From positions 96,001-160,000 of the IMG/VR virus record IMGVR_UViG_3300031134_000001: 64,000 nucleotides of DNA; one strand, given 5' to 3'. The stretch's first letter is position 1. Each line of letters starts with the position of its first letter. The DNA is from a virus. Taxonomy: Duplodnaviria; Caudoviricetes. Positions 2,661 to 57,823 of the stretch are shown in pieces. The notes beneath the pieces were generated by a model, which saw only the letters and a list, made by a program, of their open reading frames with translations, ran no database searches and was not told where the DNA came from. A program made the position numbers and the translations under genes.

Positions 2661-3989
2661 ATGAATAAAATCGACATGTTCGATACCTACAAGCAGCTTC
2701 TCGCCACGACCAGTATGGAAGTGACCGAAGAAGGCTTCGTACGGATGGAAATCGATGAGAATGAATACATTCCCGTCACAGCCAAAGACCAGAAAATCGT
2801 GGTGCTGCCGCTCGTTGAGCGTTTGCGCGATAAGAAGGTCGACGAATACGAAATCTTCCACTTGCTGCGCGACGGCGGTGGCAAAGACAGTGACCTGATG
2901 TCGCGTTATCGCCATTGGCTGATCAACCGTCTGAACCTGGTACTCGGCGGCCTGGGTGCCATCCTGCTCGATATCGCAGCCAGTCCTGCCATTACCAAAA
3001 CGCTTTCGCCAGAACAGCAAGCGTACCTGGGCATGGTCGCTGACGCCGACGTGGACTCCGTGAAGAACTTCGACAAGCTCGCCGATATGGCATCCAAAGC
3101 CAATCAGATCCAGCAAGTCTTCGTCTCGGTGTATCTGCAGCCGGCAGCTGTCCTCGATGTCAACGGCGAGAAGGTCAGCTTCAACCGCGTGGCCCGTTTC
3201 AACTTCCCTATCTTCGATGCCATCAAAGATGTCATTGCAGAAGACGAAGCGTACAAGGCAGCGCCCAAGGCCAAGAAACCGACCAAGGGCGACGGCAAGA
3301 TCTTCGGCGCCGCTATCCGGGTGAAAGATCGCGATGTGTTCATCGGTCTGCTCAAGTACATGTTGCCAGAACTGGATGTGCGTCATCGCTACGATATCGG
3401 TAGCAACTCGCGCATTTCGCCAAGCCTGGATGCCATGATGCGCGGCTTCCTGCCGATGATCACGCACCTGAACGCAATCATGGAACTGTTCACTGGCGTC
3501 AAGCCAGAGATCGATCGCGCCATTTCGGGGATGATGATCCCAACGGACTGGGAAGCAGCCTTCGAAAACCTGGATGTGCTGTGGCCGCAGATCCGTTCGG
3601 TTCCAACCCAAAGCGTGGGCGCCTTGGTCGAACCAGCGCCGACCGATCTGCGTCAGAATGCAGCAGTGGCTGCAACCGTGCATTCGCCGTACAATGCCCC
3701 AGCAGCACCACCGCCATGGGCATTGCCAACACCAACGCCACACGTACAGCCAACGCAGACCATCTACGGTAGTACCTACGCACCACCTGTACCAGTTCGT
3801 AGCGGTAACAGTGGTGGCGGTATGGATGTGGGTGAAATGATGCGTGGTCTGGGTGGCGGTCGTCACGCACCACAGCAACAGCACCCTGGTTACGTACAAC
3901 CGCAACAGCCGTACTATCCACCACCTGCGGCGACGATGTACCCAGGCCAGCAGCAGTACCAACCCCAGCAACAACAACGTCGTTATTAA
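2661..3989 (+). CDS. Conserved Chimalliviridae protein, phiKZ gp70-like, with P/Q/Y/G low-complexity C-terminal tail
   Basis: 442-aa ORF with SD (AAAGGA) upstream. Synteny. The last ~110 aa are low complexity (YPGQQQYQPQQQQRRY). Confidence 0.55.
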   Translation: MNKIDMFDTYKQLLATTSMEVTEEGFVRMEIDENEYIPVTAKDQKIVVLPLVERLRDKKVDEYEIFHLLRDGGGKDSDLMSRYRHWLINRLNLVLGGLGAILLDIAASPAITKTLSPEQQAYLGMVADADVDSVKNFDKLADMASKANQIQQVFVSVYLQPAAVLDVNGEKVSFNRVARFNFPIFDAIKDVIAEDEAYKAAPKAKKPTKGDGKIFGAAIRVKDRDVFIGLLKYMLPELDVRHRYDIGSNSRISPSLDAMMRGFLPMITHLNAIMELFTGVKPEIDRAISGMMIPTDWEAAFENLDVLWPQIRSVPTQSVGALVEPAPTDLRQNAAVAATVHSPYNAPAAPPPWALPTPTPHVQPTQTIYGSTYAPPVPVRSGNSGGGMDVGEMMRGLGGGRHAPQQQHPGYVQPQQPYYPPPAATMYPGQQQYQPQQQQRRY

Positions 3990-4046
3990 CGGCATAAAGC
4001 CAACCCGACCCGTAGTGGGATCGGGTTGGTCTTTCCTTTATGCGTT
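3989..4046. terminator. Bidirectional hairpin between convergent genes, flanked by ACGGCATA / TATGCGTT
   Basis: CCAACCCGA...TCGGGTTGG stem between the stops of 2661-3989(+) and 4089-4424(-). Flanks match the dispersed motif. Confidence 0.7.
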
Positions 4047-4088
4047 AATTTTTTTAGCTCTTCTGTTAAAAAAGATCACACGATCCTA

Positions 4089-4424
4089 TTAGCTGATGCG
4101 CGGCCAGCTATTGTGCGACTGTAGGATTTGTTCAACCAGGGCAAAGTCGGGCACAGTCATGGCCAACACATCTTCATGGAACTGGTTGGGGGATGTAAAC
4201 TGGTTGATACGCATGACCAACCAGTGGTATTGTCGCTTGACGGTTTGGGTGTCCAGGAAACTGAAGAAGTCTCCACGCCAACGATACGCGTCGGATGGAT
4301 CAATCAGAACGATCTGCGAATTGGTTTCTCGCAGAAACGTCATGTGATCTTCCAGCACGTTGCGAAACTCAGGATCATAGAAAATATCTGGTCCAGGATC
4401 AACCATCAGATTATTCAGCGCCAT
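4089..4424 (-). CDS. Small protein, T4 gp53/LysM-like baseplate wedge candidate
   Basis: 111 aa. YRWRGDFFSFL...YHWLVMRINQFTSP resembles the W-x-I-x-x-x-N-x-x-x-x-P pattern of gp53/tail-X LysM-like proteins. Confidence 0.45.
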   Translation of the reverse strand: MALNNLMVDPGPDIFYDPEFRNVLEDHMTFLRETNSQIVLIDPSDAYRWRGDFFSFLDTQTVKRQYHWLVMRINQFTSPNQFHEDVLAMTVPDFALVEQILQSHNSWPRIS

Positions 4425-4459
4425 TTTATCACCTTAACAAGCATTAGAAAATTGTAAGA

Positions 4460-4469
4460 CTATATCACT
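4460..4469 (+). promoter_or_regulatory. Candidate early (virion-RNAP) promoter CTATATCACT
   Basis: Lies in the AT-rich gap upstream of the nvRNAP beta-C gene. An identical 10-mer occurs at 59787-59796. One mismatch from the phiKZ early consensus TATATTAC. Confidence 0.55.
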
Positions 4470-4536
4470 AAAACAGAGCAGAACGCTCCGATAAGTAACA
4501 AGAAGATAGTTTGTTTTATTTACAAAAAGGATCGGT

Positions 4537-6801
4537 ATGAGTTACAACCATTCACCAGCTGTGAGTTTTGATCCACCGCTTAACTACCGGGTTATCAAAC
4601 CTTCGCTCGTCGTACCGAACGAGCACTTCCCGCAGGGTGAAAGTGTCATGGCCATTAACATGGCCAACGCCGCGATTTCGGCGTCACGTAAACAGATGTA
4701 CGGTAACAACTTGGGTCAGATCGTGGTGGTGTGCGGTATGACCGAACGGATTATTCAGACAGGCATGGACACCCTGTTATCCGACACCACGTTCTCCCAG
4801 CGCATGCCGGCCAAAGGCCAGATCGTTGGTTACTTCCACCGCTATGAACGTAAAATCGGTGAGAATGCATTTAAGACCAGCCCACCGCAGTCGGTCGCCA
4901 TCTTCCGCTCGTTTGACGATAGCGTGGATTACGAGTACGGCTTGGTGAGCCTGTCAGACTACAGCGCTTACCATCCGTACCTGGGCTTTAGTTATGTCGA
5001 CAAGCCCGGTATCACGCAGCTTCGTATTGGTCATACGATCGAAAAGGACACGGTGTTCCGTGATTCGCCAGGTGTGTTGAATGATCCAGAAGACACCAGC
5101 GGCGACCATGACTACGCGTTCACCGTGACGATCAACGTGGCCATGATGGGCCTGCGCGATGTGGCTGAGGATGGTATCGTCATCGCCCGCGGCGCCCTGA
5201 AGAAGTTTGGCTTTGAAACGTTCGAACGCCATGTGGTGGAATTTGGTCAACACATGGTGCCCCTCAATCTGTACGGCGATCCAAACGATCCAACGGACTA
5301 CAAGATCTGTCCGGACATCGGTGAGAAGATCGGCAAAGATGGTTGCTTGATGGCGCTGCGTACGTGGCGGCCTGACCTGGCGATTGCAGAACTGAGTGTG
5401 AACGCCCTGCGCCGGATCGACTACATGTTCGACAAGAAGGTCATGGCGGACGGTGAAGTCATCGACATCAAAGTGCACCACGATCGCAACACCGGCCTCG
5501 TCGGCACTCCAGCTGCCATGGAGACGCAGCCACTGAAGTACGACGAAGGCCGTCGTGAGTTCCTCGGCAAGATCTATCGCTGGTGGACTGACATCGTCAA
5601 GGATCTCGGACGTGATCCAATCCTGCAGCCGCAACTGCACAACCTGATCATCGAAGCCATCTCGGTGGTCAATCCTAACCAGGACAACAACACGGTCGTT
5701 AAGGTCCACAAGAAAACCCGGATCGACGACTACCGCATGGAGTTCACCATCCGGCACCGGATCGTGCCGAACATGGGCAACAAGTTCACCGATCTGTTTG
5801 GCGGTAAGGGCGTGGTCGTGTCCATCTGGGAAGATGAAGACATGCCGGTTGATGCAGACGGCAATCGTGCAGAAATGATCTTTGACCAAGCGGCTGTGAA
5901 CAACCGCATGATTCCTGGTCGTCTGTACGAGCACATCATCAACGGCAGCGCCCGTGATGTGTACCGCAAGATCGTGCGTGCTTTGGGCATTCAGGACATG
6001 CGCCGTCCAGCACAGATCCGTCAGGACCTGATGCGCATCCAAGCCGAGCAGCCAGAGCTGTTGTCCAAAGCGTGGGAATATCTGCTGGGCTTTTACGAAG
6101 TCACCGTGCCTAAACAAGCCGCGATCTTCCGTAACTGTGACTTCGGCGCCAGTCCGCTGCAGCACCTGTCGTACATCATGTCGAAAGGGCATACTGTTCT
6201 GTACATGCGTTCGGACCATCCACTGATGCTCAAGAACATGGTGTCGGACATCGAGCGGCTGTATCCATCGACGTTCGGTCCTGTGTACTACCGCGGTGCT
6301 TCGGGCAACCATGTCTGGACGGAAGAGCCTGTGCGTATCGCACCGTTGTCGATCATCATGCTGGAAAAGATCGCCGACACAGGTTCTGCTGTATCATCGA
6401 CCCGTCGTCAACATGCTGGCGTGCTTGCAACCCTGAGCAACGCCGACAAGTACTCCGAGCGTATCCGTAACCAGCCGACCAAAGCGTATGGTGAATCGGA
6501 AATTCGCATCGTGATTTCGTACTCGGGTACGTTGACAGCTGCCGAGATCCTCGATCGCAACAACAGCATCGAGTCACACAAAGCGATGTGCTGGAGTATC
6601 TTCGAGTCGACGCACCCAACCCGCATCGCGCGTGCTGTGGATCGTAATGTCATTCGCTTGGATGGTTCCCGTTCCTTGCAGACGGTGAATCACGTGTGGG
6701 CATGCTCGGGTATGGAAATGGCGTGGGATAACTATCGCCCAACCCATCCAGCGCACCACGCGATGCACAACATCCATGAAAGCGTTCTTAAAGCTGCGTA
6801 A
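4537..6801 (+). CDS. Non-virion RNA polymerase beta subunit, C-terminal half (phiKZ gp71/73-like)
   Basis: GNKFTDLFGGKGVV corresponds to the beta GDKxxxRHGQKGV motif. EDMPVDADGNRAEMIFD and YGESEIR (clamp GEME-like) are also present. Only the C-terminal half of beta is encoded. Confidence 0.9.
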   Translation: MSYNHSPAVSFDPPLNYRVIKPSLVVPNEHFPQGESVMAINMANAAISASRKQMYGNNLGQIVVVCGMTERIIQTGMDTLLSDTTFSQRMPAKGQIVGYFHRYERKIGENAFKTSPPQSVAIFRSFDDSVDYEYGLVSLSDYSAYHPYLGFSYVDKPGITQLRIGHTIEKDTVFRDSPGVLNDPEDTSGDHDYAFTVTINVAMMGLRDVAEDGIVIARGALKKFGFETFERHVVEFGQHMVPLNLYGDPNDPTDYKICPDIGEKIGKDGCLMALRTWRPDLAIAELSVNALRRIDYMFDKKVMADGEVIDIKVHHDRNTGLVGTPAAMETQPLKYDEGRREFLGKIYRWWTDIVKDLGRDPILQPQLHNLIIEAISVVNPNQDNNTVVKVHKKTRIDDYRMEFTIRHRIVPNMGNKFTDLFGGKGVVVSIWEDEDMPVDADGNRAEMIFDQAAVNNRMIPGRLYEHIINGSARDVYRKIVRALGIQDMRRPAQIRQDLMRIQAEQPELLSKAWEYLLGFYEVTVPKQAAIFRNCDFGASPLQHLSYIMSKGHTVLYMRSDHPLMLKNMVSDIERLYPSTFGPVYYRGASGNHVWTEEPVRIAPLSIIMLEKIADTGSAVSSTRRQHAGVLATLSNADKYSERIRNQPTKAYGESEIRIVISYSGTLTAAEILDRNNSIESHKAMCWSIFESTHPTRIARAVDRNVIRLDGSRSLQTVNHVWACSGMEMAWDNYRPTHPAHHAMHNIHESVLKAA

Positions 6802-6852: not shown

Positions 6853-8982
6853 ATGCCTACAGTATTAAAACGTTACGATGCTCGTTATTTTCTGCGCTTT
6901 GATCCAGAAGATCTTTGGAACTGGATCACAGGCCCGTTTATTCTCGTGATGGATGATAAGGAGGAGATTGAAACCAACCACGTAGAGACTTGCTACAGCA
7001 GCTACGCGTGGGACTTCCACCGTAAGTATCCCAACACCCCGCTCTTGGCTGAGCACCACATCCGCGGTATTTTGAAGTGGGACAAGAAGACCGGCATCGC
7101 TGGTCGCTTGTCAATCGGCGCTGATCTGGAACTGTTCGGCAACTGCATGATGTCGAGCTGGGAAGCGTACTTTCGCACGCCAGAGAAGATCAACCGCGTA
7201 ACACTCTGGCGCGACATGGCCGAAGCAATGAACCGGCATTACTGTCACTTCATCAAGTTCGCCGATCGTTACGTGGGTACGCTGGACATTCTGCACTTCC
7301 ATGAAGCAATGGACGATGAAGAGATCTACGCAGCGAACTTGGCAGTGCAACGTGGGGAAATCCAGATCCACGAAGTCTACGCCATCATCGACCGGGTCTT
7401 TAAGAAATCCAAGCGTTTGATGCACAACCCACTCGTGCGCGAGTATCGCTCCAAGCTGCTCAAGCAAACCCAGGTGCACCAGAACATCGGACCACGTGGG
7501 CGGCCTACCGACATGAACTCACGCATCTTCGGCCACACCATCTTGACCGGGTATGTCGAGGGGATTAACCGGATTGCTGAGTCGGCCATTGAAACACGCT
7601 CGGCAGCACGCGCTTCGTACTACGCGGCGGAATCGCTGCGCATGTCCGAGTACTTCTCGCGCAAGTTGCAGTTTGTCTCGCAAAACGTGTGCAACATCCA
7701 CCAGGACTGCGATTGCGGTTCGACCAAGTATCTGGAATGGAAGGTGCGTGACCGTAAGATCGATGAGCAAGGTGATGAAGTTCGGCCAAGCGATCTGATT
7801 TTACTTAACGGTAAGTACTATCTTAATGAGAGGACCGGCGCATTAGAGCCGATCCGGCCTGACTCGTTCCATCTGCTCGGTCAAACCGTGCGGGTACGCT
7901 CGACGTTGTATTGTGCGCATCCCGATCCTGTCGGCGTGTGCTCAACATGTTTCGGTGAATTGGCGTTTAACGTGCCACCTGAAGCGAACATCGGGCAGTG
8001 GTGCGCAACAACGATGGCAGAGCAAGCAACACAGGCTCTGTTGTCCGCGAAGCATTTGGAGCGTTCTAGCGCGTTGGAGCGGATCGAGATCGATCCACGC
8101 TGGACGAACTATATCGCAGGCGGGCTGAACAATTCGTCGTATGTGCTGTCCAAAGCCATCGAAGACAAAGACGTGAGCATCATCTTGCTGCGTAGTCAGG
8201 TTGAAAGCCTGCACGACATCAAGAGCGTCGAAGACATCGAAGAGCATCCGGAAGAGCACTACAGCGAACTGACCATGCTCAACATCAAGATCGCCGAAGG
8301 GTTGGATACCCCGATGGTGCCTACCCCTGGCAGCAAGAACAAGGTTGTTGGTGGTGGCGGCATTGTGGGTGTCGAAGTGGGTACGGCTGGTAGCCGGGAA
8401 GCTAGTTTGTCGTACGAGATGCTGAACTACATCCGTGAACATGGCTACCGGACTGTGTCGTTGTCGGAAGGTCAGGTTCGTGCGGGTCAACGCAATGAAG
8501 ACCGCTACGAAATCGACATGGTGAACTGGAACTGGGATGATCCTATCCTGGTGATGCCGGCCAAACACTTCAACAACTCCGACCACGTGGATCAAGTGGC
8601 GCGCCGACTGGAGTCGCGTGTGGAAGAGATGCGCAAACGATCGCGTATCGACACTGCCGATAAAATGGTCTTGGACTTGTTTAACTTCGTGAACATGAAG
8701 CTGAACGTGAACTTGTCGTGCTTGGAAGTTATCTTGTACGCCACCATGATCATCTCGGCAGAGGACAACGACTACAGTCTGCCAAAACCGTGGACCACAT
8801 CGCAACCGTCGGTGTTGTCCATGACGATGAAGGGACGGAGTTTGTCGGTGTTGATGGCCTTCGAGAAGCAGTACGAAGCGCTGATCGATCCGAGCAGCTT
8901 CATCCACACCAATCGTTTGAACCATCTGTTTGACGGCATCTACACGCCAACTCACGTATATGGACAAACACAACTAGAATGA
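6853..8982 (+). CDS. Non-virion RNA polymerase beta-prime subunit, C-terminal part (phiKZ gp74-like)
   Basis: Bridge-helix-like ETRSAARASYYAAESLRMSEYFSRKLQFVSQNV, then DCGS. Zn-binding RSTLYC...GVCSTCFG. Trigger-loop-like MAEQATQALLSAKH. Confidence 0.9.
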   Translation: MPTVLKRYDARYFLRFDPEDLWNWITGPFILVMDDKEEIETNHVETCYSSYAWDFHRKYPNTPLLAEHHIRGILKWDKKTGIAGRLSIGADLELFGNCMMSSWEAYFRTPEKINRVTLWRDMAEAMNRHYCHFIKFADRYVGTLDILHFHEAMDDEEIYAANLAVQRGEIQIHEVYAIIDRVFKKSKRLMHNPLVREYRSKLLKQTQVHQNIGPRGRPTDMNSRIFGHTILTGYVEGINRIAESAIETRSAARASYYAAESLRMSEYFSRKLQFVSQNVCNIHQDCDCGSTKYLEWKVRDRKIDEQGDEVRPSDLILLNGKYYLNERTGALEPIRPDSFHLLGQTVRVRSTLYCAHPDPVGVCSTCFGELAFNVPPEANIGQWCATTMAEQATQALLSAKHLERSSALERIEIDPRWTNYIAGGLNNSSYVLSKAIEDKDVSIILLRSQVESLHDIKSVEDIEEHPEEHYSELTMLNIKIAEGLDTPMVPTPGSKNKVVGGGGIVGVEVGTAGSREASLSYEMLNYIREHGYRTVSLSEGQVRAGQRNEDRYEIDMVNWNWDDPILVMPAKHFNNSDHVDQVARRLESRVEEMRKRSRIDTADKMVLDLFNFVNMKLNVNLSCLEVILYATMIISAEDNDYSLPKPWTTSQPSVLSMTMKGRSLSVLMAFEKQYEALIDPSSFIHTNRLNHLFDGIYTPTHVYGQTQLE

Positions 8983-10526
8983 GCTTTGCAACCATAACTG
9001 TTGGTAGTCACCATTTCGTGGTTACCAACATACATGCGCGCGTTAGGGCGGTCTGCCGTGAATTCTCTCGTCCACTCATTGTGTACAAGAAAGAATTCGC
9101 GGGCTATGGCCGCCCTAAGATTATCGTCATGGACAAGATCTACGCGGGAGCAACCGTGTCGCGTAGTGAACATCGTTACCACATCAACCATCTGGAGGAG
9201 TTCAAGAAGTTGTTGTACCGTCACCAGCTGGAAGGTGAGGGACTGATCGAATGGAACGAAATCCCGCCGTACGTACCTGACCCGATGGAACTGGAGATTC
9301 GTTCTCACTTTATTCCTACCCCGGATCAAGACGAGGCGATTAACTACATCTTGCAAACATCCCGCCCGAACAACAAAGCTGTCATCATGCAAGCTGGCGG
9401 GGGCAAGACCTTGACCACCATGATTGCCGCCGCCAAGCAGGGTGAGCGGATGGTGATCATGCTGGAAGCGCGTTACATCGGTCAGTGGTTAAAAGCGTTT
9501 GAAGAGAACTGCATCATCAAGAAAAAACGCATCGCTGTGATTCAAGGCAGTAAGTCGCTTAAAGCATTGATGTTCATGGCCGACGAAGGGAACATTCCTT
9601 ACGACGCTATTATCATTAGTGCGACCACGTTCGCAGGTTACATCAAGGACTACGAGGAGCACGAAGGTCAACTTGAGGCGATGGAAGGTTATCCATTCCC
9701 GCCGCAAGTCTTCTACGAGAAAGTCAAGGCAGGTCTACGCGTGATCGATGAAGGTCACGAAAACTTCCACTTTGTTTTCAAACAGGATCTTTATACCCAC
9801 GTCAAAAATTCGGTGGTTCTATCGGCGACGTTGTTTAACGATGAACCGTTCTTAAACAGCATGATGAAGTTGGCCTATCCGACGGCTGATCGGTTTGACA
9901 AAGGCGGCTTTAACAAGTACGTGCACGCGTACTCCCTGCATTACAGCATGCGGGCACCACGCGAGATTAAATGCCAAGGCAGTATGGGCTACTCGCATGT
10001 GGAGTTTGAAAAGAGTATACTCAAGTCGAAAGAGAAGACGCTAGCGTACTTCCGTATGGTGCGTGAAAGCATGCGCTATACGTACGAGTTTGATTATCGA
10101 CAGGGCGATCGGTGCTTGGTGTACTTCGGCACGATCGACATGTGTACACGCTTTACTGAGTTCATCCAGAAAGAGTTTGCGCATCTTCGTGTCGAGCGTT
10201 TTGTGGAAGACGATCCACTAACGAATCTGTTAGAAGCTGACATCAGTGTTTCGACATTGAAGTCGGCGGGTACGGGTAAAGATATCGCCATGCTCACCAC
10301 CGTGATCATGACGCCAGCTGTGAACGCATCACCGTCGAATATTCAAGGCTTTGGTCGCTTACGTGACTTGAACCGGAAAGATCCGACGTTGGGACGTCGC
10401 ATGCACTTCGTGTATTTCTGCTGCGACGATATCTTAAAGCACCTGGATTACCACGAGCGCAAGAAAGAGTTGTTACGCACGCGTGCTTTGCATTACGAGC
10501 CGCGGTATTTCGGTACGTTAATTTAA
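8979..10526 (+). CDS. Superfamily 2 (UvsW/DEAD-like) helicase, phiKZ gp75-like
   Basis: Motif I QAGGGKT, motif II IDEGH, motif III SAT, motif VI QGFGRLR. Confidence 0.9.
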   Translation: MSFATITVGSHHFVVTNIHARVRAVCREFSRPLIVYKKEFAGYGRPKIIVMDKIYAGATVSRSEHRYHINHLEEFKKLLYRHQLEGEGLIEWNEIPPYVPDPMELEIRSHFIPTPDQDEAINYILQTSRPNNKAVIMQAGGGKTLTTMIAAAKQGERMVIMLEARYIGQWLKAFEENCIIKKKRIAVIQGSKSLKALMFMADEGNIPYDAIIISATTFAGYIKDYEEHEGQLEAMEGYPFPPQVFYEKVKAGLRVIDEGHENFHFVFKQDLYTHVKNSVVLSATLFNDEPFLNSMMKLAYPTADRFDKGGFNKYVHAYSLHYSMRAPREIKCQGSMGYSHVEFEKSILKSKEKTLAYFRMVRESMRYTYEFDYRQGDRCLVYFGTIDMCTRFTEFIQKEFAHLRVERFVEDDPLTNLLEADISVSTLKSAGTGKDIAMLTTVIMTPAVNASPSNIQGFGRLRDLNRKDPTLGRRMHFVYFCCDDILKHLDYHERKKELLRTRALHYEPRYFGTLI

Positions 10527-10577
10527 ACGGCATAAGTCCCTCTCTACCCTTCGGGGTAGAGAGGTTCTTTATGATGT
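10527..10577. terminator. Bidirectional hairpin flanked by ACGGCATA / TATGATGT
   Basis: CCTCTCTACCC-TTCG-GGGTAGAGAGG stem with UUCG loop between convergent stops. Confidence 0.8.
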
Positions 10578-10595
10578 CTATTTTTTTTTGGTACT

Positions 10596-11051
10596 TTACG
10601 AGCGATAATCGGGACAATACACCGTCACAGTCATGCTCGTATCTTTGAGGAGTTCTTCGATCAAAGGTTTTACCTCACGATCAAAGTCAAGCCCTCCTTT
10701 ACCACAACCTAGTGCAGGCAGTGCCACACTTTCAATGTCATTGCGCACGCACCAGTCCAGTAGTTTCAGTAATCCATCGCGAACAATGTCCACAGAAGAA
10801 TCATTCCACCACCGCACTTTGGTGTGCAAGCAATACACCACAAAGCCATCAGCTCTAAATAAGAACGGAAACATCTTCTCAGGCGCATGCTTCTTACAGT
10901 GCACACGAAACCGATCGAAGAATCTAGGCACTCGCATACGAAACGCATACGCTAGACCATTTCCCATCACGCCGCCGGCGTTGGTAGGACAGACCAGCAC
11001 TTGGGCAGTATCCTTAAAGATGTCGCCCCGTTCAATATAGCGAATACCCAT
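10596..11051 (-). CDS. Macrodomain protein (DarG/Appr-1-p-processing-like ADP-ribose hydrolase)
   Basis: GDIFKD...LVCPTNAGGVMGNGLAYAFR and SVALPALGCGKGGLDF are the canonical macrodomain ADP-ribose-binding loops. Confidence 0.85.
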   Translation of the reverse strand: MGIRYIERGDIFKDTAQVLVCPTNAGGVMGNGLAYAFRMRVPRFFDRFRVHCKKHAPEKMFPFLFRADGFVVYCLHTKVRWWNDSSVDIVRDGLLKLLDWCVRNDIESVALPALGCGKGGLDFDREVKPLIEELLKDTSMTVTVYCPDYRS

Positions 11052-11515: not shown

Positions 11516-13078
11516 CTATGGACGCTGACGGATTTGTTGGATCTTTTGGTAAAGGAGGCTGAAAAAAACAGACACCGGGTCGATAGGGATGATGTTCTCG
11601 AACCGTGGCAGGACTTTGTCGCTTTCATCGACGTGCACCTGCGGCACTGCAACGATCGAGACCATCGAGTCGTTGATGTATTGCTGCACTGCCTTGTAGT
11701 ACTTGTCGCGCACCACGTCGTCGCTCGACATGTTCGAGATCGTCATCTCCAGCGTGGGCCGGTCGACGATCTGCTTGCCCAACTTCGGCATGTCGATGCT
11801 TTCGATCCAGTGAACATACTGACGCATCGACGTGGCTTTGGCACGATCGTAGATCATGTCATTGCGTTGCTTTTCCGTCAGGTCTTGCGCGAACGCGTTC
11901 GTGACAGACTGCACCAGTTCATCCACCCAGCGCTGACCCGAGTTGAGGTATTCGTCAACGCTTGGCGTACGCAGCGTAATGCCGACTTCGTCGCTGAGCA
12001 TGATCGTTCGACGCTTGCCGACGACGAAGTGATCGCGGTAGATCGGCAGCGATGCTGGGTTCATCGAACCGGTAACGCGCTGCGCCATGTGACTGACTTG
12101 CCAGTCGTTCAGGCAGTTGCGATCGGTGTACAGGCACGTGCCCACGTTCAGCAGTTCCCGCACCACGGTGGTTGCTACGCCACGCGCGTCGAGCAGCGCA
12201 CGTTCGAACTGGAAACCTTTCGGATACACAGCCGCAGCCAAACCCCAGGCAATTGCTGGGATGTCCATGGCGTTGATCGCGCCGCGGATCTTGTCGGTAG
12301 TGTTAAAACCGGCGACCGTGGTTTCGAACATGCTGCGCATGGCCAGATCAACGATCGCGCTGTTGGTTACCACCACGTGGTTGGCGAACGTCAGGCCGTT
12401 GGTCGAACGACCGAAGTTGATCTTGTTGTCGCTGATGTGTTGCAGGGCGTCGAGCAGTTCGATTTCACCCGGCGACTTGACCGTGATCCAGAAGCCCGAA
12501 TGCCAGAGTGGGATCTGGACGATCGAGCCACGACCCAGCAGAGCACTCACGCGCAGCATAGCGCGCTCGCCGGTCAACAGAGGACCTTCATCCCCGCCGA
12601 ACTTGGGTGTTGCCAACGACATCGCACGACCGCCATCCACAGGCGAAATTTGCTGTTGCCAGTTGGCGCCTTCACGCTTGGCTGCCGGCAGGGCGTTGTC
12701 GTGGAACGAACCGTGGTTAATGCCGAGCGATACCGATTCTGCCCAGTTTTCACCCTGTGCGCTGTCGACCATGCTGGCTGCGTGCGGGTTCGTCTCGCCG
12801 TAGTTCAGCGTACGTGCCACGGTGTCGGGCGGCAAAGCGATGGTGGTCGCCAGATCATCCCACTGGTCGCCCAGCACGCGGTAGTACGGCGTGGTGATCG
12901 TGGCGTTGTTCAGTGGTTCTGGCGCAGGCCAGCTAAAGCTGCTTTCTGCATCGCCTTCAGGCGCATCTTCAGCGGGAATGCCAGCCGGTGCTGACACGGG
13001 CGACGACAGATCGATTTCTTCGAGTTGCGCTTCGGTCGACACAGCGACCGGTGCTTTATCAGGATCGTTAATTTGCAT
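11516..13078 (-). CDS. Conserved Chimalliviridae protein (phiKZ gp77-like by position); putative tail/baseplate assembly chaperone
   Basis: 520-aa ORF with strong coding bias, acidic disordered N-terminus, ending IIPIDPVSVFFSLL. Function inferred from the frameshift architecture. Confidence 0.6.
   Translation of the reverse strand: MQINDPDKAPVAVSTEAQLEEIDLSSPVSAPAGIPAEDAPEGDAESSFSWPAPEPLNNATITTPYYRVLGDQWDDLATTIALPPDTVARTLNYGETNPHAASMVDSAQGENWAESVSLGINHGSFHDNALPAAKREGANWQQQISPVDGGRAMSLATPKFGGDEGPLLTGERAMLRVSALLGRGSIVQIPLWHSGFWITVKSPGEIELLDALQHISDNKINFGRSTNGLTFANHVVVTNSAIVDLAMRSMFETTVAGFNTTDKIRGAINAMDIPAIAWGLAAAVYPKGFQFERALLDARGVATTVVRELLNVGTCLYTDRNCLNDWQVSHMAQRVTGSMNPASLPIYRDHFVVGKRRTIMLSDEVGITLRTPSVDEYLNSGQRWVDELVQSVTNAFAQDLTEKQRNDMIYDRAKATSMRQYVHWIESIDMPKLGKQIVDRPTLEMTISNMSSDDVVRDKYYKAVQQYINDSMVSIVAVPQVHVDESDKVLPRFENIIPIDPVSVFFSLLYQKIQQIRQRP
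11561..11567 (-). other. Candidate -1 programmed ribosomal frameshift heptamer U UUU UUC
   Basis: The minus strand reads GTT TTT TTC (V-F-F), 14 codons before the stop of 11516-13078. A -1 slip enters the open frame of 11061-11501. Confidence 0.55.
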
Positions 13079-16138: not shown

Positions 16139-16960
16139 ATGAGCAAAAACAGTAACCGCAACCGCGCCGCCCAAACGACCGAAACCGCGAACGCTTACGA
16201 ACAACCGACTGGCGATACCGCTCCCGTCCAGTTCCCAAAAACCAACACGCCACCCGAAAAGTTCGAACCGACGAATAAACCGGAAGACACGCAAGGTGCC
16301 CAGGGTGAAACGTCATCGGCCGACACAGCAACGACTACACCCGCTGAAGCAGTCGAAACCAAAGTCGACCCACTCGGTCCAATCCCGGAAAATGCGAACG
16401 TTCTGCGTGGCATGGTTGCGGCATCGGCCCCAGAAGTCACTACGGCCGTAGCGCCGGCCGAACCAGTCGTCATCGCCAAGCAAACCGTTCAGCCGCTGAC
16501 CATCCCGGTCGACCCGTACCAGCTGCCGCTGTCGTGCTCGGCTGGTTCGCGCCTGACCGTGCAAGAGCTGCGCGAGTACGTCGAGAAGATGTCGAGCCGC
16601 GTGCGTATGCCGGCTGTTGAAGGTGGTCAAGTCCAGTCGGGCCTGTATCACATCCTGATCCAAGCCATCAACACCCGCGCTGAAGACTTCGACGCGACGT
16701 TCGGCACCGTGATGCGCATCGTCCGTGACAACCTGCCGACCGTGTTCAGCATGGAAAACATGCACCGCTACACGCCGTACGCGACGCTGCCATCGAAGTC
16801 CATGGCACACTTCCGCTATCTGCTGTCGGTGCTGACCGGCTTGGCCGATCCATCGCTGCGCAACGAGACCGCTCGCCAGACCAGTCTGGAAAAGGCGTTC
16901 CGCTCGATGAACATCAAAGAAGAAGCACGTCAACGCGTGCTGAACTTCTTCAACTTCTAA
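16139..16960 (+). CDS. Hypothetical protein with disordered T/P/E/A-rich N-terminal half and helical C-terminal domain
   Basis: 273 aa, SD AGGAG, strong codon bias. Confidence 0.75.
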   Translation: MSKNSNRNRAAQTTETANAYEQPTGDTAPVQFPKTNTPPEKFEPTNKPEDTQGAQGETSSADTATTTPAEAVETKVDPLGPIPENANVLRGMVAASAPEVTTAVAPAEPVVIAKQTVQPLTIPVDPYQLPLSCSAGSRLTVQELREYVEKMSSRVRMPAVEGGQVQSGLYHILIQAINTRAEDFDATFGTVMRIVRDNLPTVFSMENMHRYTPYATLPSKSMAHFRYLLSVLTGLADPSLRNETARQTSLEKAFRSMNIKEEARQRVLNFFNF

Positions 16961-16969
16961 ATCGTTACG

Positions 16970-17026
16970 ACGACATAGGAACTACTACCCCTACTAGCTG
17001 CGAGGCCGGTAGGGGTAGTATGCCGC
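16970..17026. terminator. Bidirectional hairpin flanked by ACGACATA / TATGCCGC
   Basis: TACTACCCCTAC...GTAGGGGTAGTA stem between convergent stops 16960 and 17029; no U-tract. Confidence 0.7.
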
Positions 17027-17028
17027 CA

Positions 17029-18798
17029 TTACGCGGCAATCGTGGCTGTATTCTCCAGCGCTTTTTTACGGAGGAACGATTGGTACATTTGATCGAGGCT
17101 AGGCGCCTTGTACAAGTCTTGGCAAATCTCCAGTGCATTGACATGACCACCAGCCAAGTTAAAGCCGATGCGTCGCCGGATATGATCCGGAATGCCTTCG
17201 ATGTACATGAGCTCTCGGTGTGTGGTGTACTTCGAGATGTTCATGCAAATACCCTCGTTCGGGTACGTACCAGCAATGTCCAAGTCACCCACGCCAATGC
17301 GGATGTTGGTCGGTACGTGGTGCACTTCTTCCAAACACTTCAGCCCCGAGTCCATGACCAAGTGCGCCGGCAGCATCGTAATCCAACCTTTGCCGTTGAC
17401 GGTTTTGTCATCGTTCTCATCACGCATCTCATCGGACGTACTGGCTAGTACCCGGTCCTGCTGCAACAAGTCAAAGAAGAACTTATTGCACAGCTTCTTC
17501 GGTTGCGATGGGAACAGCGCGTAGTCTGTCGGACCAGAGTACAACGGGAAGTTCAGGTTCAAGTCACCTGTTACTTCATCGAGCATCTCCATGCCGATAC
17601 AGTCAAACACGTTGTAGACGACATATTCGAATTTGTAGAACTCTTGCAAGAACGCGTGCTTCTCCCGACCGTGGTAACCATCTGCTTCGGTAAAGTTCAG
17701 CTTACCGCGCTTGAGGTACTTGTCCATGATGTCGTCCAGCGAATAACTCGACTCTTCTTGCTGGCCTGTACGAATCTGGCGATAGGCGCACATCGCATCG
17801 ATAAAGTAGAACGATGCTGGGGTAGTAACGATATGCCACTGCTGGGATGGTGAGAGTGGTGTCGTGTCGCCGTTGGCTTTCTTCTTTTGCGCAGGCCCGA
17901 TCTTAAATTCGAAATGCTTGTAGTCTTGGGGCATTCGTGGGTCGGAGAACACTTGCGCTGGATCGTCGCCATTAGCTTGCAAGGCTTCGAGCATTTTCAC
18001 CATGTCGAACTTGATGTTCCAGATGGCCAAGAAGTCAGGCTGCCATTCATGGGACTTGGCGATAACTGCTTTAACCACGTCCGCTGCCGTATCGACCAAC
18101 ACCACTTCCCACGTGATGTTACGCTGCTTCATCACGTCGCCGATGTAGTGCTGCATGGCTTCATGCAGCTTTTGTTCGACGTTAATGTGACCATCGAAGA
18201 AGGAACGTTTGATCGCCGTGAAGACGCGCTCTTTCATCGAGATCGTCTGCATGATGACTTCTTCTTCTTTACTGTGCATGTTCGTTTCCGTATCTGTCGC
18301 AGCCATGGTAGCTAGGCCGCGCAGTTGAGGGAACATGTCCATGTACATCTTCTTGAGCAGCGTCGTAGACGTCACGTCGGTGCCGTACAGATACGGTGAG
18401 CGAGCCAGCTTACGCATGTTGTCGCGCTCTGCTGGGAACGGTAACCCATAACGCTTGCGGGCTTTGTCGGTACGCTCGATCAGTTCTTTGCGTACTTTCT
18501 TTTGCAGTTCCGATTCCGTGCACACGAATTCGGTCAAGTCTGCCATCTCAGCAAACTCACGCTTTTCTTTGTGTTGCTGCACACCTGGCCGCTCAATCCA
18601 GAACTTGCGTTTGAAGTCTTTCTTGATGACGGTGTGTGGTACGAGAACAATCTTATCGCCTTCTTTGACGTGAGCAACACGTTTGATAAAATGAATATCC
18701 GGCATGCCCTGATCTGGCGGTGCGCAGTAAGTGCTATGCCGGCATTCGAAACCCAAGATGTCGTCCGGGTTGTACTCTTTGATATTCTTGATTTTCAT
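17029..18798 (-). CDS. Split family-B DNA polymerase, exonuclease-containing subunit (phiKZ gp82-like)
   Basis: ExoI DTET, ExoII WNIKFD, ExoIII YNVFD, and polymerase motif-A-like DLDIAGTYP. The ORF ends before motifs B and C. Confidence 0.85.
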   Translation of the reverse strand: MKIKNIKEYNPDDILGFECRHSTYCAPPDQGMPDIHFIKRVAHVKEGDKIVLVPHTVIKKDFKRKFWIERPGVQQHKEKREFAEMADLTEFVCTESELQKKVRKELIERTDKARKRYGLPFPAERDNMRKLARSPYLYGTDVTSTTLLKKMYMDMFPQLRGLATMAATDTETNMHSKEEEVIMQTISMKERVFTAIKRSFFDGHINVEQKLHEAMQHYIGDVMKQRNITWEVVLVDTAADVVKAVIAKSHEWQPDFLAIWNIKFDMVKMLEALQANGDDPAQVFSDPRMPQDYKHFEFKIGPAQKKKANGDTTPLSPSQQWHIVTTPASFYFIDAMCAYRQIRTGQQEESSYSLDDIMDKYLKRGKLNFTEADGYHGREKHAFLQEFYKFEYVVYNVFDCIGMEMLDEVTGDLNLNFPLYSGPTDYALFPSQPKKLCNKFFFDLLQQDRVLASTSDEMRDENDDKTVNGKGWITMLPAHLVMDSGLKCLEEVHHVPTNIRIGVGDLDIAGTYPNEGICMNISKYTTHRELMYIEGIPDHIRRRIGFNLAGGHVNALEICQDLYKAPSLDQMYQSFLRKKALENTATIAA

Positions 18799-20280: not shown

Positions 20281-20811
20281 ATGAACCCAAAATACTTCGG
20301 CTTGAATGAAGCCATCGGCAAACTGATCAAAGTGCCAGCCGTCCAAGGCCGCATCGTCGCCATCGCTGTTGCTCTGGCTGCATCGAGTCAAGCGCACATG
20401 CCTTCGTCGCAACTGGAAAACCCGTCGGCGTTCTACGGCGAACAAGTGCACGGCTTCGTGGCTGAGAAGATCTCGGAAGTCGGCGAGTCGGTGATCTTCG
20501 CCAGCAACCTGTCGCTGGACTACGCGCAGATGTTCTGGAAGATGCGTTACACCGCAGCCTATCCAAACCGCATGCTGGTGGACAACGCATACCAAATCGA
20601 TCGCCTGCTGTCGGTACGCGCTTCGACCAGCCTGGACATCACGTCGATCTGGTCGGGCGGTCTCTTGGACGTCTCGGAAGAAATGAGCCAGTTCATGAAC
20701 ACCTACCGCGCCGAGATTATGGGCGTGGCTACGCGTGTGGCACTGATCCTGCAAGTGGAAGAAGTGCGTGACGGTGACCTGAACCCGACCGCTGCGGCAG
20801 GAGTGCTGTAA
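20281..20811 (+). CDS. Putative virion structural protein
   Basis: 176 aa in the structural operon, with an N-terminal GLNE candidate cleavage site. Confidence 0.6.
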   Translation: MNPKYFGLNEAIGKLIKVPAVQGRIVAIAVALAASSQAHMPSSQLENPSAFYGEQVHGFVAEKISEVGESVIFASNLSLDYAQMFWKMRYTAAYPNRMLVDNAYQIDRLLSVRASTSLDITSIWSGGLLDVSEEMSQFMNTYRAEIMGVATRVALILQVEEVRDGDLNPTAAAGVL

Positions 20812-22175
20812 TGTCCTTCATTGACGTCACCGCAGCACTGGCCAAAGCCAATGGCGACAACGTCGTGTTGGCAGCACCTACCGACGAAAGTCTGAACGCC
20901 GGCGCATTCCTGCCCGATGAACCAGTTGGCGATGTCTTAACCAACGAAGTGCCGGGCGATCCGAACGTGATCCTGGACGCACTGAACAAGCTCAACGAGC
21001 CAGTGGCGACCGAATCGATTTTCAACAACCTGGACTATCTGCGTAAGGACATGCTGAGCCTGCGCGGCATGAACCAGAAGATCGCTACCGAAGCCATGAC
21101 GCTTTTGCCCAACTTCGGCCAAGGTCGTCCGGTGAACTTCTACAGCCGTCACGTCTCGCCAACCGGTTACAGCGTCGCGCTGGAAGAAATCGAAGCTGGC
21201 ATGCAAAGCGATCTGCTCTCTTCAATCGCTGGCCAGATCAATCGTCTGGAATCGATGGTGGCAACGCCAGGCAACGGCTTCGTGCTGGAAAACCTCGACT
21301 TCAAACGCCGCGCTGATCAAGTCGTGAACCAAGGCTGTCTGTTGGAAGAGTTCGCTACTACGCTGGCGACCCGAACCGCCTTCCAATGGGACGACGCAAC
21401 GTTCCGTGGTTGCGTGGTTGACCCAACGCAGAACACCATGGTGCCTGCTGTCTTGGGTATCCCTGTCAAAGTGGCGCACGGGTTTGGTGAGATGGATGCG
21501 TACTACACTGCCCACAACGATGCTCCAGCGATGCTGGAAATCATGGAGTCGTATCTGAAGGAGTGGCTGGATCTGTTTGTTGGCATCACTGACCAACTCA
21601 AGCAAACCGACACCAAGATCAGCAGCGACACGCCTAAAGCACCCACGGTGTACTTCGGCGGCGGTGGCAAGAGCACCACGCTGGTGAACATCGCCGATGT
21701 GTTCCGTTCGGCCGCTGACAAGGTCGTTGATCCAGACCCATCCACACTCAACACCTTAACGCTGGTCAAGGCTGTGGGCAACGCTGCGCAACAAGCGCGG
21801 GTCGACGACATCATGTCGCGTGGCAAAGCGTTCGTGGAAGTGGCTACTCAAGTGGCTGCTGTACTCAAAGGTCTGAGTTCGGCGTTGCAGTCGAGCCCTA
21901 ACGTGGACCACATCAGCGCCGTGCACAAGCTGGTCGGTGATTTCGCAGTCGCCTCGCAAGCACTCAACGCTGGTTACACGGAAATGCTGCGCTGGTGTGT
22001 GAACGCCAGCATCGCTACGTCGTATGCTGGCACGTTGGCTGCCAAGGTCGGCGAAGTCGCATGGAAGGCTGCGCAGCAATGCCGCGAGACCATCCAGATG
22101 TCCGAGCACACCTACGTGTCGCTCAAAGTGCGTGCTGAGCTGATGCAAGCTGCACTCACCCAAAACGCAATGTAA
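20811..22175 (+). CDS. Putative head/inner-body protein
   Basis: 454 aa. ATES and ALEE candidate protease sites; helical Ala-rich C-terminus. Confidence 0.6.
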   Translation: MSFIDVTAALAKANGDNVVLAAPTDESLNAGAFLPDEPVGDVLTNEVPGDPNVILDALNKLNEPVATESIFNNLDYLRKDMLSLRGMNQKIATEAMTLLPNFGQGRPVNFYSRHVSPTGYSVALEEIEAGMQSDLLSSIAGQINRLESMVATPGNGFVLENLDFKRRADQVVNQGCLLEEFATTLATRTAFQWDDATFRGCVVDPTQNTMVPAVLGIPVKVAHGFGEMDAYYTAHNDAPAMLEIMESYLKEWLDLFVGITDQLKQTDTKISSDTPKAPTVYFGGGGKSTTLVNIADVFRSAADKVVDPDPSTLNTLTLVKAVGNAAQQARVDDIMSRGKAFVEVATQVAAVLKGLSSALQSSPNVDHISAVHKLVGDFAVASQALNAGYTEMLRWCVNASIATSYAGTLAAKVGEVAWKAAQQCRETIQMSEHTYVSLKVRAELMQAALTQNAM

Positions 22176-22222
22176 CATCATAGCTCCCGCCACCCACACC
22201 GGGTAGCGGGAGTCTATGCCGT
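22175..22222. terminator. Bidirectional hairpin flanked by ACATCATA / TATGCCGT
   Basis: CTCCCGC...GCGGGAG stem filling the gap between convergent stops; no U-tract. Confidence 0.7.
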
Positions 22223-22224
22223 CA

Positions 22225-30687: not shown

Positions 30688-30738
30688 ATCCCCTTCACTC
30701 TCGGCAGCATGGAGGGTGAAGGGGATTACTTCTTTTTT
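30688..30738 (+). terminator. Intrinsic terminator
   Basis: ATCCCCTTCAC / GTGAAGGGGAT stem followed by a T-rich run. Confidence 0.75.
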
Positions 30739-30774
30739 TCCATCATCCGAACAAATTCACGTAAAGGTACTGTG

Positions 30775-32214: not shown

Positions 32215-32228
32215 GCGAGTCCTCCTCG

Positions 32229-32268
32229 AAAAAACCCTACTGTCCTGTTGGATGGTGGGGTTTTTTTT
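32229..32268 (+). terminator. Intrinsic terminator followed by TATGACGC
   Basis: AAAAAACCCTAC...GTGGGGTTTTTTTT. Confidence 0.7.
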
Positions 32269-32320
32269 ATGACGCCTATAAAAAGGTGGATGGTATGAGC
32301 TTTACTTTAGGAAGCAAATT

Positions 32321-38015: not shown

Positions 38016-38034
38016 TTCCCCTGTTGGCTACAAA

Positions 38035-38096
38035 GTAGCATCCCTATCTCTACTTACCTACACGGGCGAGTGGGGGTAGGGATGCTACTTTTTTTT
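38035..38096 (+). terminator. Intrinsic terminator
   Basis: GTAGCATCCCTA / TAGGGATGCTAC stem plus T8. Confidence 0.8.
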
Positions 38097-38120
38097 GTTG
38101 CATTTTACAAGGAAGTCATT

Positions 38121-42021: not shown

Positions 42022-42047
42022 GAGGCGGGCTCACGCTCGCCTCTTTT
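42022..42047 (+). terminator. Small intrinsic terminator
   Basis: GAGGCGGGC / GCTCGCCTC stem plus TTTT. Confidence 0.55.
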
Positions 42048-42065
42048 ACTTAACAAAGGTCGCTT

Positions 42066-44160: not shown

Positions 44161-44622
44161 GTGCAAGTTTTCTTCTACAAAGGTACCCGGCCCGGTTTGG
44201 CAGGTATCTATAGCTGGGGTGTGCGTAAAGTGACGCAGTCGCCTTACTCGCATTGTGAAATTCTGTTTAGTGACGGCATGTCTGCATCGGCGTCGTTTAC
44301 CGATCATGGTGTGCGTTTCAAAAAGATCGACTATGAACCAGAACACTGGGACGTGATCGATCTGCCATCGGAACTGTTCGAAGCACGAGCACGTCAATGG
44401 TTCATCGAACACAACGGCGATCCGTACGATCTCCTGGGCAACGTGTACTTCCTGTTTAGCTTGATCGGCGGTGATAAAGACAAGTGGTTCTGCTCGGAAG
44501 CACTGGGCGCAGCCCTGGGTCTGCCAGAGCCATGGCGGTTCGATCCAGGCACGTTGTACGAAGCTGTGAAGTGGTTGTCCGAATCACTCAAAGCCCAACA
44601 AGCTTTGCAAGTGGCTGCATAG
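44161..44622 (+). CDS. Permuted papain-like (NlpC/P60, YiiX/YebB-like) amidase/peptidase
   Basis: His-before-Cys order: YSHCEILF ... YDLLG ... WFCSE. GTG start after GAAAGGA. Confidence 0.75.
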   Translation: MQVFFYKGTRPGLAGIYSWGVRKVTQSPYSHCEILFSDGMSASASFTDHGVRFKKIDYEPEHWDVIDLPSELFEARARQWFIEHNGDPYDLLGNVYFLFSLIGGDKDKWFCSEALGAALGLPEPWRFDPGTLYEAVKWLSESLKAQQALQVAA

Positions 44623-44666
44623 ACGGCATAGACGTGGAGGGTCACCCCCTCCACGTTTTATGCTTT
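44623..44666 (+). terminator. Hairpin flanked by ACGGCATA / TATGCTTT; TATG may also serve as a late promoter
   Basis: ACGTGGAGGG / CCCTCCACGT stem. Confidence 0.7.
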
Positions 44667-44729
44667 CAAATCGAAAAAGTCGTTGTTATCGTATGTCTAT
44701 CAGTAATTTTTAATTTTACGAGGGTCATC

Positions 44730-45257
44730 ATGGATGATGAAATCAACGTACTACGCGACCCGGAGGAAGAGCTTATTGAGTTGATCAATAAGGACAACAT
44801 CACTCCCAAAGGCAGTATCAACTTAACGCTTGACGACGTTGAGTTATCTGACCCGGTCTCTGTTTCGTATGGCGGACGGAACACGCGCGTGACGGTTAAG
44901 GCCAAGCCGTCGTCAAAGTACACCGGCACCAAGGACGTGTTTTACAACCGGCTCGCACTTAGCGACTTGGGTTACATTGGCATCATTTCAGACGAACCGA
45001 TCTCTGCCCAGATGATCCTTGAAATGATTACCAGCAAAAAAGGCATCTCGATGCTGGCCGACGATTTCGAGCCAATCATCATTCCTTACCTGGAAGCTGG
45101 TGAAGCGCTCAAGATCAATCTGATTGCCAAGCCCACGGCGATCAAGTGGTATGGCCAAACCCAAGCAGACTACGCATTCGGCATTCCAGCCGGTCTGGGA
45201 TTACTGCACGAACTGATCCACAATACGTTGCCTACCCAAGGCTACTTAACACAGTAG
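44730..45257 (+). CDS. Tail-associated paralog-family protein (third copy)
   Basis: ATG at 44730 after GAGG. LIELINKDN...RNTRVTVKA...YTGTKDVFYNRLAL. Confidence 0.65.
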   Translation: MDDEINVLRDPEEELIELINKDNITPKGSINLTLDDVELSDPVSVSYGGRNTRVTVKAKPSSKYTGTKDVFYNRLALSDLGYIGIISDEPISAQMILEMITSKKGISMLADDFEPIIIPYLEAGEALKINLIAKPTAIKWYGQTQADYAFGIPAGLGLLHELIHNTLPTQGYLTQ

Positions 45258-57665: not shown

Positions 57666-57682
57666 GTTAATCTTAGATTAAC
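57666..57682. promoter_or_regulatory. Perfect 8+1+8 inverted repeat, operator-like
   Basis: GTTAATCT-T-AGATTAAC. Confidence 0.35.
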
Positions 57683-57728
57683 CATAGACTCCCTCCCGGC
57701 CTTGCGGCTGGGAGGGGGCTTATGCCGT
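57681..57728 (+). terminator. Hairpin followed by TATGCCGT, ending the tail cluster
   Basis: CTCCCTCCCGGCC...GGCTGGGAGGGGG stem; no U-tract; CATA on the left flank. Confidence 0.65.
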
Positions 57729-57823
57729 CATGTGGTACTAGAATATTTCACGTCCATATTACACAGGTAGATAGAACAACCAATGTTCTACGACATGTCT
57801 AAACTCTTCCTGAAAGGAACATC

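Follow-up and report, generated by a model that had tools for sequence, protein, structure and literature searches.

In phiKZ, 133 terminators have been mapped by ONT (Oxford Nanopore Technologies)-cappable-seq (Putzeys 2024, PMC10914365). Among these, 61 share a motif of a stem-loop and, after it, TTAT (BCCYCCCCHWWDGGGRRGGBYTTATKYYGT), and six bidirectional terminators lie between convergent genes (PMC10914365). A very similar motif, motif A, is found in 59 terminators of 201phi2-1, where a second motif elongates the stem (PMC11512511). Here we analyze a family of gene-end hairpins, followed by a conserved tail beginning with TATG, in bases 96001-160000 of the viral record IMGVR_UViG_3300031134_000001 (64,000 nucleotides (nt), hereafter the window; positions are those of the window unless stated otherwise). 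A preliminary description of this DNA had offered two readings of the hairpins, either as a sequence-specific terminator for the phage-encoded RNA polymerases (RNAPs) or as terminator/promoter units that fire antisense RNA into convergent genes. Our analysis indicates that the elements are very probably transcription terminators of the conserved phiKZ type.

Hairpins With a TATG Tail Are Concentrated at Gene Ends

Each unit consists of a GC-rich hairpin, whose 5' arm is rich in C and whose 3' arm is rich in G, with a loop of 4-5 nt. It is located 0-30 nt past a stop codon, and the start of the element is often at, or overlaps, that codon. The stem CTCCCTCTACCC-TTCG-GGGTAGAGGGAG is an example, and has the C/Y-rich 5' arm, G/R-rich 3' arm and short loop of the phiKZ-type stem. 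After a spacer of 0-5 nt, which is often pyrimidine-rich, follows the tail T1-A2-T3-G4-(C/A)5-(C/T)6-G7-T8-(C/T)9, with the TATG starting between -4 and +11 nt from the stem end, mostly at +1. Where the hairpin side is downstream of an incoming gene, the positions after TATG have the composition C68/A26, C68/T21, G81, T87 and C66/T28 (in percent). The phiKZ-type tail (T)TAT(G/T)YYGT is thus present directly 3' of the stem, the elements are positioned at gene ends and are two-sided between convergent genes, and the phage that carries them encodes split multisubunit RNAPs.

The genome-wide motif search proposed in the preliminary description was carried out on the complete record of 271,026 base pairs (bp; 52.5% GC), in which genes were called with an ad hoc codon-usage open reading frame (ORF) caller and hairpins were located with a heuristic finder. 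The motif proved to be enriched at gene ends, both here and in the stretches sampled from phiKZ-like relatives. The exact sequence TATGCCGT/ACGGCATA occurs 27 times, against about 5 occurrences expected, and 44 of the 90 matches with at most one mismatch are intergenic, though intergenic DNA makes up 10.9% of the genome; nearly all of these intergenic matches lie directly 3' of a GC-rich hairpin. Starting instead from the independently found hairpins, TATG is present within -4 to +12 of the stem on 61/134 intergenic hairpin sides, compared to 2.5% expected and to 14/454 for genic hairpins. It is the commonest 4-mer adjoining hairpins genome-wide (61/256 sides, P=2e-47). A hairpin is found at 15 of approximately 16 real convergent junctions, and occupancy is 23/30 for convergent sides and 24/63 for tandem sides.

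The full tail depends on the direction of transcription. Of the sides downstream of an incoming gene, 29/47 have TATG[CA][CT]GT, compared to 2/14 of the remaining ones (Fisher p=0.002, rank test p=3e-5), which explains why both flanks carry the tail at convergent junctions. On hairpin sides without an incoming gene TATG is still over-represented (14/41) and the extension is lost; one-directional units keep only (G)CATA on their 5' side. Two of the non-incoming sides with a near-full tail adjoin stretches in which a small gene was probably missed, for instance the ORF at 44666-44932.

Within genes, TATG is depleted on the sense strand, with an observed/expected ratio of 0.66 under a second-order Markov model, and its complement CATA even more so (0.52). 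Genes are also poor in GGGG, CCCC, GAGG and CTCC, of which the terminator stems are built.

Elements in the Window

Seven elements of the window are listed here as probable terminators.

3988..4046, both strands: bidirectional terminator element between the convergent genes 2661-3989 (+) and 4089-4424 (-); minus-strand tail TATGCCGTT at 3988-3996, overlapping the TAA stop of the plus-strand gene; inner hairpin 3996-4033; a T7 run comes after the plus-strand tail TATGCGTT (4039-4046).
10526..10578: bidirectional terminator element that separates the helicase-like gene 8979-10526 (+) from 10596-11051 (-), with the hairpin at 10539-10564; on the plus strand, a T9 run comes after the tail TATGATGTC (10570-10578), and the minus strand carries the tail TATGCCGTT (10526-10534).
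16969..17027: bidirectional terminator element with 16139-16960 (+) on one side and the DNA polymerase gene 17029-18798 (-) on the other; the hairpin occupies 16983-17020, and the tails are TATGCCGCC (+, 17019-17027) and TATGTCGTC (-, 16969-16977), without a T-run.
22174..22223: bidirectional terminator element flanked by 20811-22175 (+) and 22225-25164 (-); the hairpin covers 22183-22213, and the tails are TATGCCGTC (+, 22215-22223) and TATGATGTT (-, 22174-22182), without a T-run.
32228..32276, + strand: terminator after the internal-head-protein-like gene 30709-32214, uniting both signal types; hairpin 32228-32267 with a 3' arm ending in a U-run; tail TATGACGCC (32268-32276) directly after it.
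44622..44667: two-sided element at the end of 44161-44622 (+), with the hairpin at 44630-44658 and, on the plus strand, the tail TATGCTTTC (44659-44667).
57678..57729, + strand: one-directional element after the 1979-amino acid (aa) gene 51712-57651 (+); its hairpin (57683-57724) has an outer helix of CAUA and UAUG; the full tail, TATGCCGTC, lies at 57721-57729; opposite side degenerate (TATGGTTAA); a separate promoter-like motif (ACTAGAATATTTCACGTCC-ATATTACA) follows, up to 57763.

All of these sites fold well, at -25 to -35 kcal/mol with z-scores of -3.9 to -7.1, and on the strands tested 0/200 shuffled sequences folded as well. A comparison with Rfam gave zero family matches in the window.

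The flanks quoted in the preliminary description were recovered at each of its six sites, namely 3989 (ACGGCATA..TATGCGTT), 10527 (ACGGCATA..TATGATGT), 16970 (ACGACATA..TATGCCGC), 22175 (ACATCATA..TATGCCGT), 44623 (ACGGCATA..TATGCTTT) and 57681 ((AC)CATA..TATGCCGT), and TATGACGC indeed follows the hairpin at 32228-32267. We likewise find an element at all four called convergent junctions of the window, with a probable fifth at 44622/44666, and agree that a T-run is missing at three sites (16970, 22175 and 57681). More generally, the elements are not marked by a U-tract right after the hairpin, as an intrinsic terminator is; where T-runs exist, they mostly lie past the tail, 10-16 nt from the stem.

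At the two-sided element 44622..44667, the full minus-strand tail TATGCCGTC (44622-44630) suggests a transcript that arrives from the minus-strand side, and probably serves the uncalled small minus-strand ORF 44666-44932. This ORF encodes 88 aa, was rejected by the gene caller and has no PHROG match.

Two further claims had been made, that the inner stems are unrelated and that the flanks often mismatch their own partner, so that sequence rather than pairing would be selected. The former is slightly overstated, as several stems share a CTCCCTCTACCC..GGGTAGAGGGAG core and the listed examples have a C-rich 5' arm. The latter holds for tail positions 5-9: in the eight two-sided elements, 21/40 of these positions are complementary to their own partner, compared to 23.6 with shuffled partners, and position 5 pairs with its partner in 1/8. 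As there is no partner-specific complementarity, sequence and not pairing appears to be selected in this extension. It does not hold for the CATA/UAUG part, which is in register within 2 nt in 20/29 cases and can pair. An explanation in which the flanks are kept solely to extend the stem was accordingly rejected for positions 5-9, and is plausible for CATA/UAUG.

At many convergent junctions the two arms are not equivalent. The plus arm reads TATGA(C/T)GTCT, after which comes a run of T7-T9 at 10-16 nt from the stem, and the minus arm reads TATGCCGT and has no T-run (window 10570-10592 and 4039-4056; genome 26864, 47190, 71248 and 235225). Tail position 5 (A or C) thus differs systematically between the two arms, and does likewise in phiKZ, for example at the transcription termination sites (TTS) 34942 and 70298.

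Conservation in phiKZ-Like Phages and Position of RNA 3' Ends

By its gene content, the source of the window is an uncultured phiKZ-like jumbo phage, and its DNA may originate from a phyllosphere metagenome. The window encodes split RNAP beta genes (4537-6801 and 6853-8982; phrog_3295 and phrog_3015), a DNA polymerase and internal head proteins. When a phage collection was searched with the RNAP beta piece, the best cultured match was Burkholderia phage FLC9, with 40% amino-acid identity over that piece, followed by phiKZ-like phages of Ralstonia, Xanthomonas, Klebsiella and Pseudomonas. A nucleotide search of the same collection gave zero matches, and a protein search with the 1126-aa gene gave short domain matches only. 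A scan of viral contigs returned a single relative, L001, with a helicase that is 54% identical.

Orthologous junctions in L001 keep the tails, and the stems differ at 2/3 junctions compared. The element at 10526..10578 has an orthologous element with a different stem, and that at 16969..17027 has a homologous stem and flanks at L001 position 18652. The same signature was found in further phages, of which samples of 21-50 kb were compared. TATG is present on 13/56 hairpin sides in FLC9, 19/84 in RP12, 25/69 in phiKZ, 7/22 in 201phi2-1 and 16/43 in Klebsiella phage Eowyn, in each case orders of magnitude over expectation. Inspection of phiKZ DNA revealed the two-sided layout seen here, e.g. ACGACATAA-stem-TTATGTCGT, and an element follows the major capsid gene in this genome, phiKZ and 201phi2-1. 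The motif is kept at gene ends across genomes of 38% to 56% GC. No enrichment was observed in the stretch from Bacillus phage AR9, with TATG on 1/28 hairpin sides (6% expected); the AR9 late promoter differs as well, being AACA-N6-TA/G read on the template strand.

Published mapping, placed on the sequences of the relatives, locates RNA 3' ends within the tail. In 201phi2-1, eight terminators with coordinates have been validated in a two-reporter assay in uninfected P. chlororaphis, in which they reduced read-through (PMC11512511). On the genome, 8/8 of these ends fall in the register hairpin-CUUUAUGN[Y]|GU, at tail position 6 (position 5 once), directly before G7. For phiKZ, we placed TTS T001-T066 of the preprint supplement on bases 1-150,000, approximately half of the genome, and read the transcription start sites (TSS) P008-P066. 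The 22 terminators with a hairpin and TATG end at tail position 3 (8), 5 (7), 6 (6) or 7 (1); all of these ends (22/22) are pyrimidines, and 14/22 lie directly before G4 or G7. In these relatives the tail is therefore the last stretch to be transcribed, with ends 3-9 nt past the stem. As G7, T8 and C9 lie at or beyond most mapped ends, they are expected to be recognized by the transcribing enzyme via DNA or the hybrid, and not through RNA pairing alone.

These data support the part of the preliminary description that read the hairpins as terminators, since the motif derives from mapped phiKZ 3' ends and the tail follows incoming transcription. The specificity for phage-encoded RNAPs that was proposed along with it is unproven, because eight 201phi2-1 terminators that bear the motif work with host RNAP.

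Proposed Mechanism of Termination

If the elements act as terminators of the phiKZ type, the polymerase would transcribe the hairpin and stop within the tail, leaving a 3' end on the pyrimidine before G4 or G7, approximately 3-9 nt past the stem, so that the tail would occupy the place of the bacterial U-tract. At convergent junctions one hairpin would serve both directions; each strand would need its own tail, resulting in the ACGGCATA..TATGCCGT layout. In one-directional units, (G)CATA can pair with UAUG(C), which would lengthen the helix and enclose the released 3' end in it.

We favour a mechanism in which pausing is directed by sequence, at the two Y-G steps just after the hairpin has formed. 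In the consensus pause of multisubunit RNAPs, G-10 and Y-1G+1 have the strongest influence (PMC5423485, PMC6336406), and the two Y-G steps, preceded by the G's of the stem, would fit this G-10/Y-1/G+1 consensus. Relative to an end at Y6, the tail logo has G at -10 in 72%, Y at -1 in 89% and G at +1 in 81%.

A more specific proposal, which we consider unlikely, is that one and the same site of the non-virion RNAP (nvRNAP), the gp123 pocket, reads TATG both at the promoter and in the terminator tail. TATG, with G as the start, is a necessary and insufficient core of phiKZ late promoters (Yakunina 2015, PMC4666361), and a pocket of gp123 binds it as single-stranded DNA of the non-template strand (PMC12809450). 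A homologue of gp123, the beta-like subunit of the phiKZ nvRNAP, is encoded outside the window at genome 244690-246384 and is 27% identical. It keeps the TATG-pocket residues S144, F151, H185, S330, H331, S334 and Q466, has the conservative changes K158R, N186Q and Y406F, and differs at K190, N398, Y399 and S402; as most pocket residues are kept, TATG recognition is plausible in this phage too. At a promoter, the pocket would set the start at G. After a hairpin, the elongating complex would capture the non-template T1-A2-T3-G4 and stall with the RNA ending at U3, and the second Y-G stop would lie before G7.

Several points weigh against the reading of the elements as terminators. Termination in this phage, including RNA ends at its tails, would follow by homology with the relatives. 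ONT 3'-end mapping resolves approximately +/-2 nt, and termination and processing look alike in it; the phiKZ coordinates were typed by hand from a machine-read supplement PDF. The tail logo was anchored on TATG, which inflates positions 1-4. The model assigns no role to the T-run found 10-16 nt past the stem in approximately one quarter of the elements. Finally, the tail hybrid UAUGCCGU is not weak, unlike that of a U-tract, so that release of the RNA needs further explanation.

Alternative Explanations

The preliminary description was right that the TATG of the tail coincides with the phiKZ late-promoter core. The elements could thus be dual-function units, in which the tail TATG is also a working late promoter with G4 as +1, re-initiating for the next gene and producing antisense RNA at convergent junctions. 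Besides the necessity of the TATG core with its G start and the largely kept pocket for non-template TATG in the gp123 homologue, the depletion of TATG and CATA in genes would fit such units, as would the 8/22 phiKZ ends exactly before G4. In phiKZ, the late start P049 (94330) comes close to an example, lying on a second TATG that overlaps the tail. The mapped starts nevertheless make this very improbable. For the 19 motif terminators in the region that both phiKZ tables cover, no TSS on the same strand was mapped within 8 nt of G4 (0/19), and any start that follows is 21-58 nt further on and belongs to a separate early, middle or late promoter; five minus-strand arms, four of them at convergent junctions, had no start nearby, and only four antisense RNAs with a defined start have been found in phiKZ. 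The model promoter P119L has no hairpin before its TATG. In the genome analyzed here, 23/47 tails face the 3' end of a convergent gene, where a late promoter would be expected upstream of a same-strand gene, and the full motif is most frequent where there is no downstream gene and disappears from the side of tandem units that faces antisense. Many of the elements are also followed by promoter-like motifs of a different kind. The idea of antisense-firing terminator/promoter units is therefore not supported, given the 0/19 starts at the tail G and the loss of the full motif on the antisense-facing side (2/14, compared to 29/47). The hairpin as a part of the promoter, as in N4, was considered separately and rejected, P119L and most listed phiKZ late promoters being without a hairpin.

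The same 3' ends could arise by processing, if an endonuclease cleaved in the tail, an exonuclease trimmed the RNA back as far as the hairpin, or a phage factor for RNA binding or export acted there, with termination elsewhere. ONT-cappable-seq ends would be the same in either case; G7 and T8, just past most mapped ends, are conserved as a cleavage site would be, and the 5' (G)CATA can pair with the released end. Against this, the 201phi2-1 elements terminate strongly when placed between two reporters in cells that are not infected and contain no phage factor, ends 3-9 nt past the stem have the geometry of hairpin-dependent termination, and one arm of many convergent units carries a T-run, which together leave a processing, stability or export signal a slim chance. 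An element acting at the level of DNA appears barely credible, be it a cruciform, a palindromic site bound by a dimeric protein, or a cassette for mobility or recombination of the kind of REP elements or of the promoter-stem-loop cassettes in T4-type phages. The arms do form an imperfect palindrome and several stems are near-identical between loci (CTCCCTCTACCC..), and T4-type phages are reported to shuffle genes at repeated regulatory stem-loop cassettes. Yet it is the direction of the incoming gene and not symmetry that determines the full tail, the arms do not co-vary, the tails persist in L001 where 2/3 of the stems differ at orthologous junctions, and the motif stays at gene ends from 38% to 56% GC. 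Termination of the phiKZ type is the reading that we retain.

Other Terminators and Neighbouring Features

A second class of elements, with a canonical hairpin and an immediate T-run, is found at approximately 12 gene ends in the genome, compared to approximately 50 for the class with the TATG tail. In the window these are located at 30688-30740, 38032-38100, 42022-42050, 51658-51690 and 59573-59600. Some hairpins are followed by a conserved T-run and TTTGTTTGTTTCT(A)G (window 59573-59613; genome 47207, 91178 and 184328), which at genome 47207 and 91178 comes after a TATGA tail.

A distinct promoter-like motif, TTTCACGnC-TATATCACT, lies 25-70 nt downstream of many elements. It matches the early-promoter consensus of phiKZ-like phages, TATATTAC, which in 201phi2-1 is TTTRARR-N-TATATTAC. 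In the form (CTA..AA..)TTTCACGnC-TATATCACT(A/T), at least 12 copies are present in the genome, preceding plus-strand genes by 20-110 nt and in many cases close behind a terminator element. In the window such motifs are located at 4436-4470 and 59763-59797, with a variant at 57737-57763, and one copy precedes the RNAP beta gene at 4537. Among TATGs away from hairpins, ATG start codons and uncalled ORFs obscure any late-promoter class of this genome; the 100-nt spacer upstream of the capsid gene has no TATG.

After the helicase gene, L001 has two terminator elements approximately 600 bp apart (11548-12215), where the window has one (10527-10600). This difference may reflect the gain or loss of a small gene bounded by the elements.

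Implications

For annotation, a hairpin followed by TATGYYGT should reliably mark the ends of transcription units when uncultured jumbo phages of the phiKZ type are analyzed, with two-sided elements marking convergent junctions and the early-promoter-like TTTCACGnC-TATATCACT often coming after. The conserved bases of the tail are not simply a U-tract, as they persist in genomes of 53-56% GC, extend past the mapped RNA ends and contain the late-promoter core. It is puzzling that A2, G4, G7 and T8 should be kept across genomes of 38-56% GC, with a late-promoter core inside the tail. If a single pocket did read TATG in both places, the promoter core would double as the pause/release signal of a U-tract-independent terminator, conserved across the sampled phiKZ-like phages of Pseudomonas, Klebsiella, Ralstonia and Burkholderia and absent from the stretch of AR9, whose nvRNAP reads a different promoter on the other strand.

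Comparison With Known Systems

The resemblance to the consensus elemental pause comprises the two Y-G steps, the G's of the stem approximately 9-10 nt upstream and the mapped ends on Y, and is a resemblance of sequence only. With the phiKZ late-promoter core the tail shares an identical 4-mer, and 8/22 terminated phiKZ RNAs end before the start-type G. In contrast to the tails, late promoters have neither a hairpin nor the conserved YYGT extension, and no mapped starts coincide with the tails.

Like bacterial intrinsic terminators, the elements have a GC-rich hairpin, an RNA end that would lie a few nt downstream, and a single hairpin for two convergent genes. They differ in that a specific mixed sequence with invariant A2, G4 and G7 replaces the U-tract, and in that positions past the RNA end are conserved.

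The closest similarities are with the phages in which the motif was described. Motifs A and B of 201phi2-1 share the hairpin and TTATGNYGT, and the stem-elongating upstream motif resembles the (G)CATA 5' flank seen here; the authors of that study treat stem length and antitermination and not the tail, and the reporter assay was done on 201phi2-1 elements (PMC11512511). Compared to the phiKZ motif, the stem is likewise C-rich/G-rich with a short loop, T-A-T-(G/T)-Y-Y-G-T comes directly after it, and the elements lie at gene ends, are bidirectional between convergent genes and occur in a phage with split multisubunit RNAPs. In contrast to phiKZ, the tail described here has mostly C at its Y positions and either C or A at position 5 (TATGCCGTC, compared to TTATGTTGT in phiKZ), which makes it far less U-rich than that of phiKZ, and the T-run before it is short or missing. 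The family is the local GC-rich version of the terminator motif known from phiKZ and 201phi2-1, and no new class of element.

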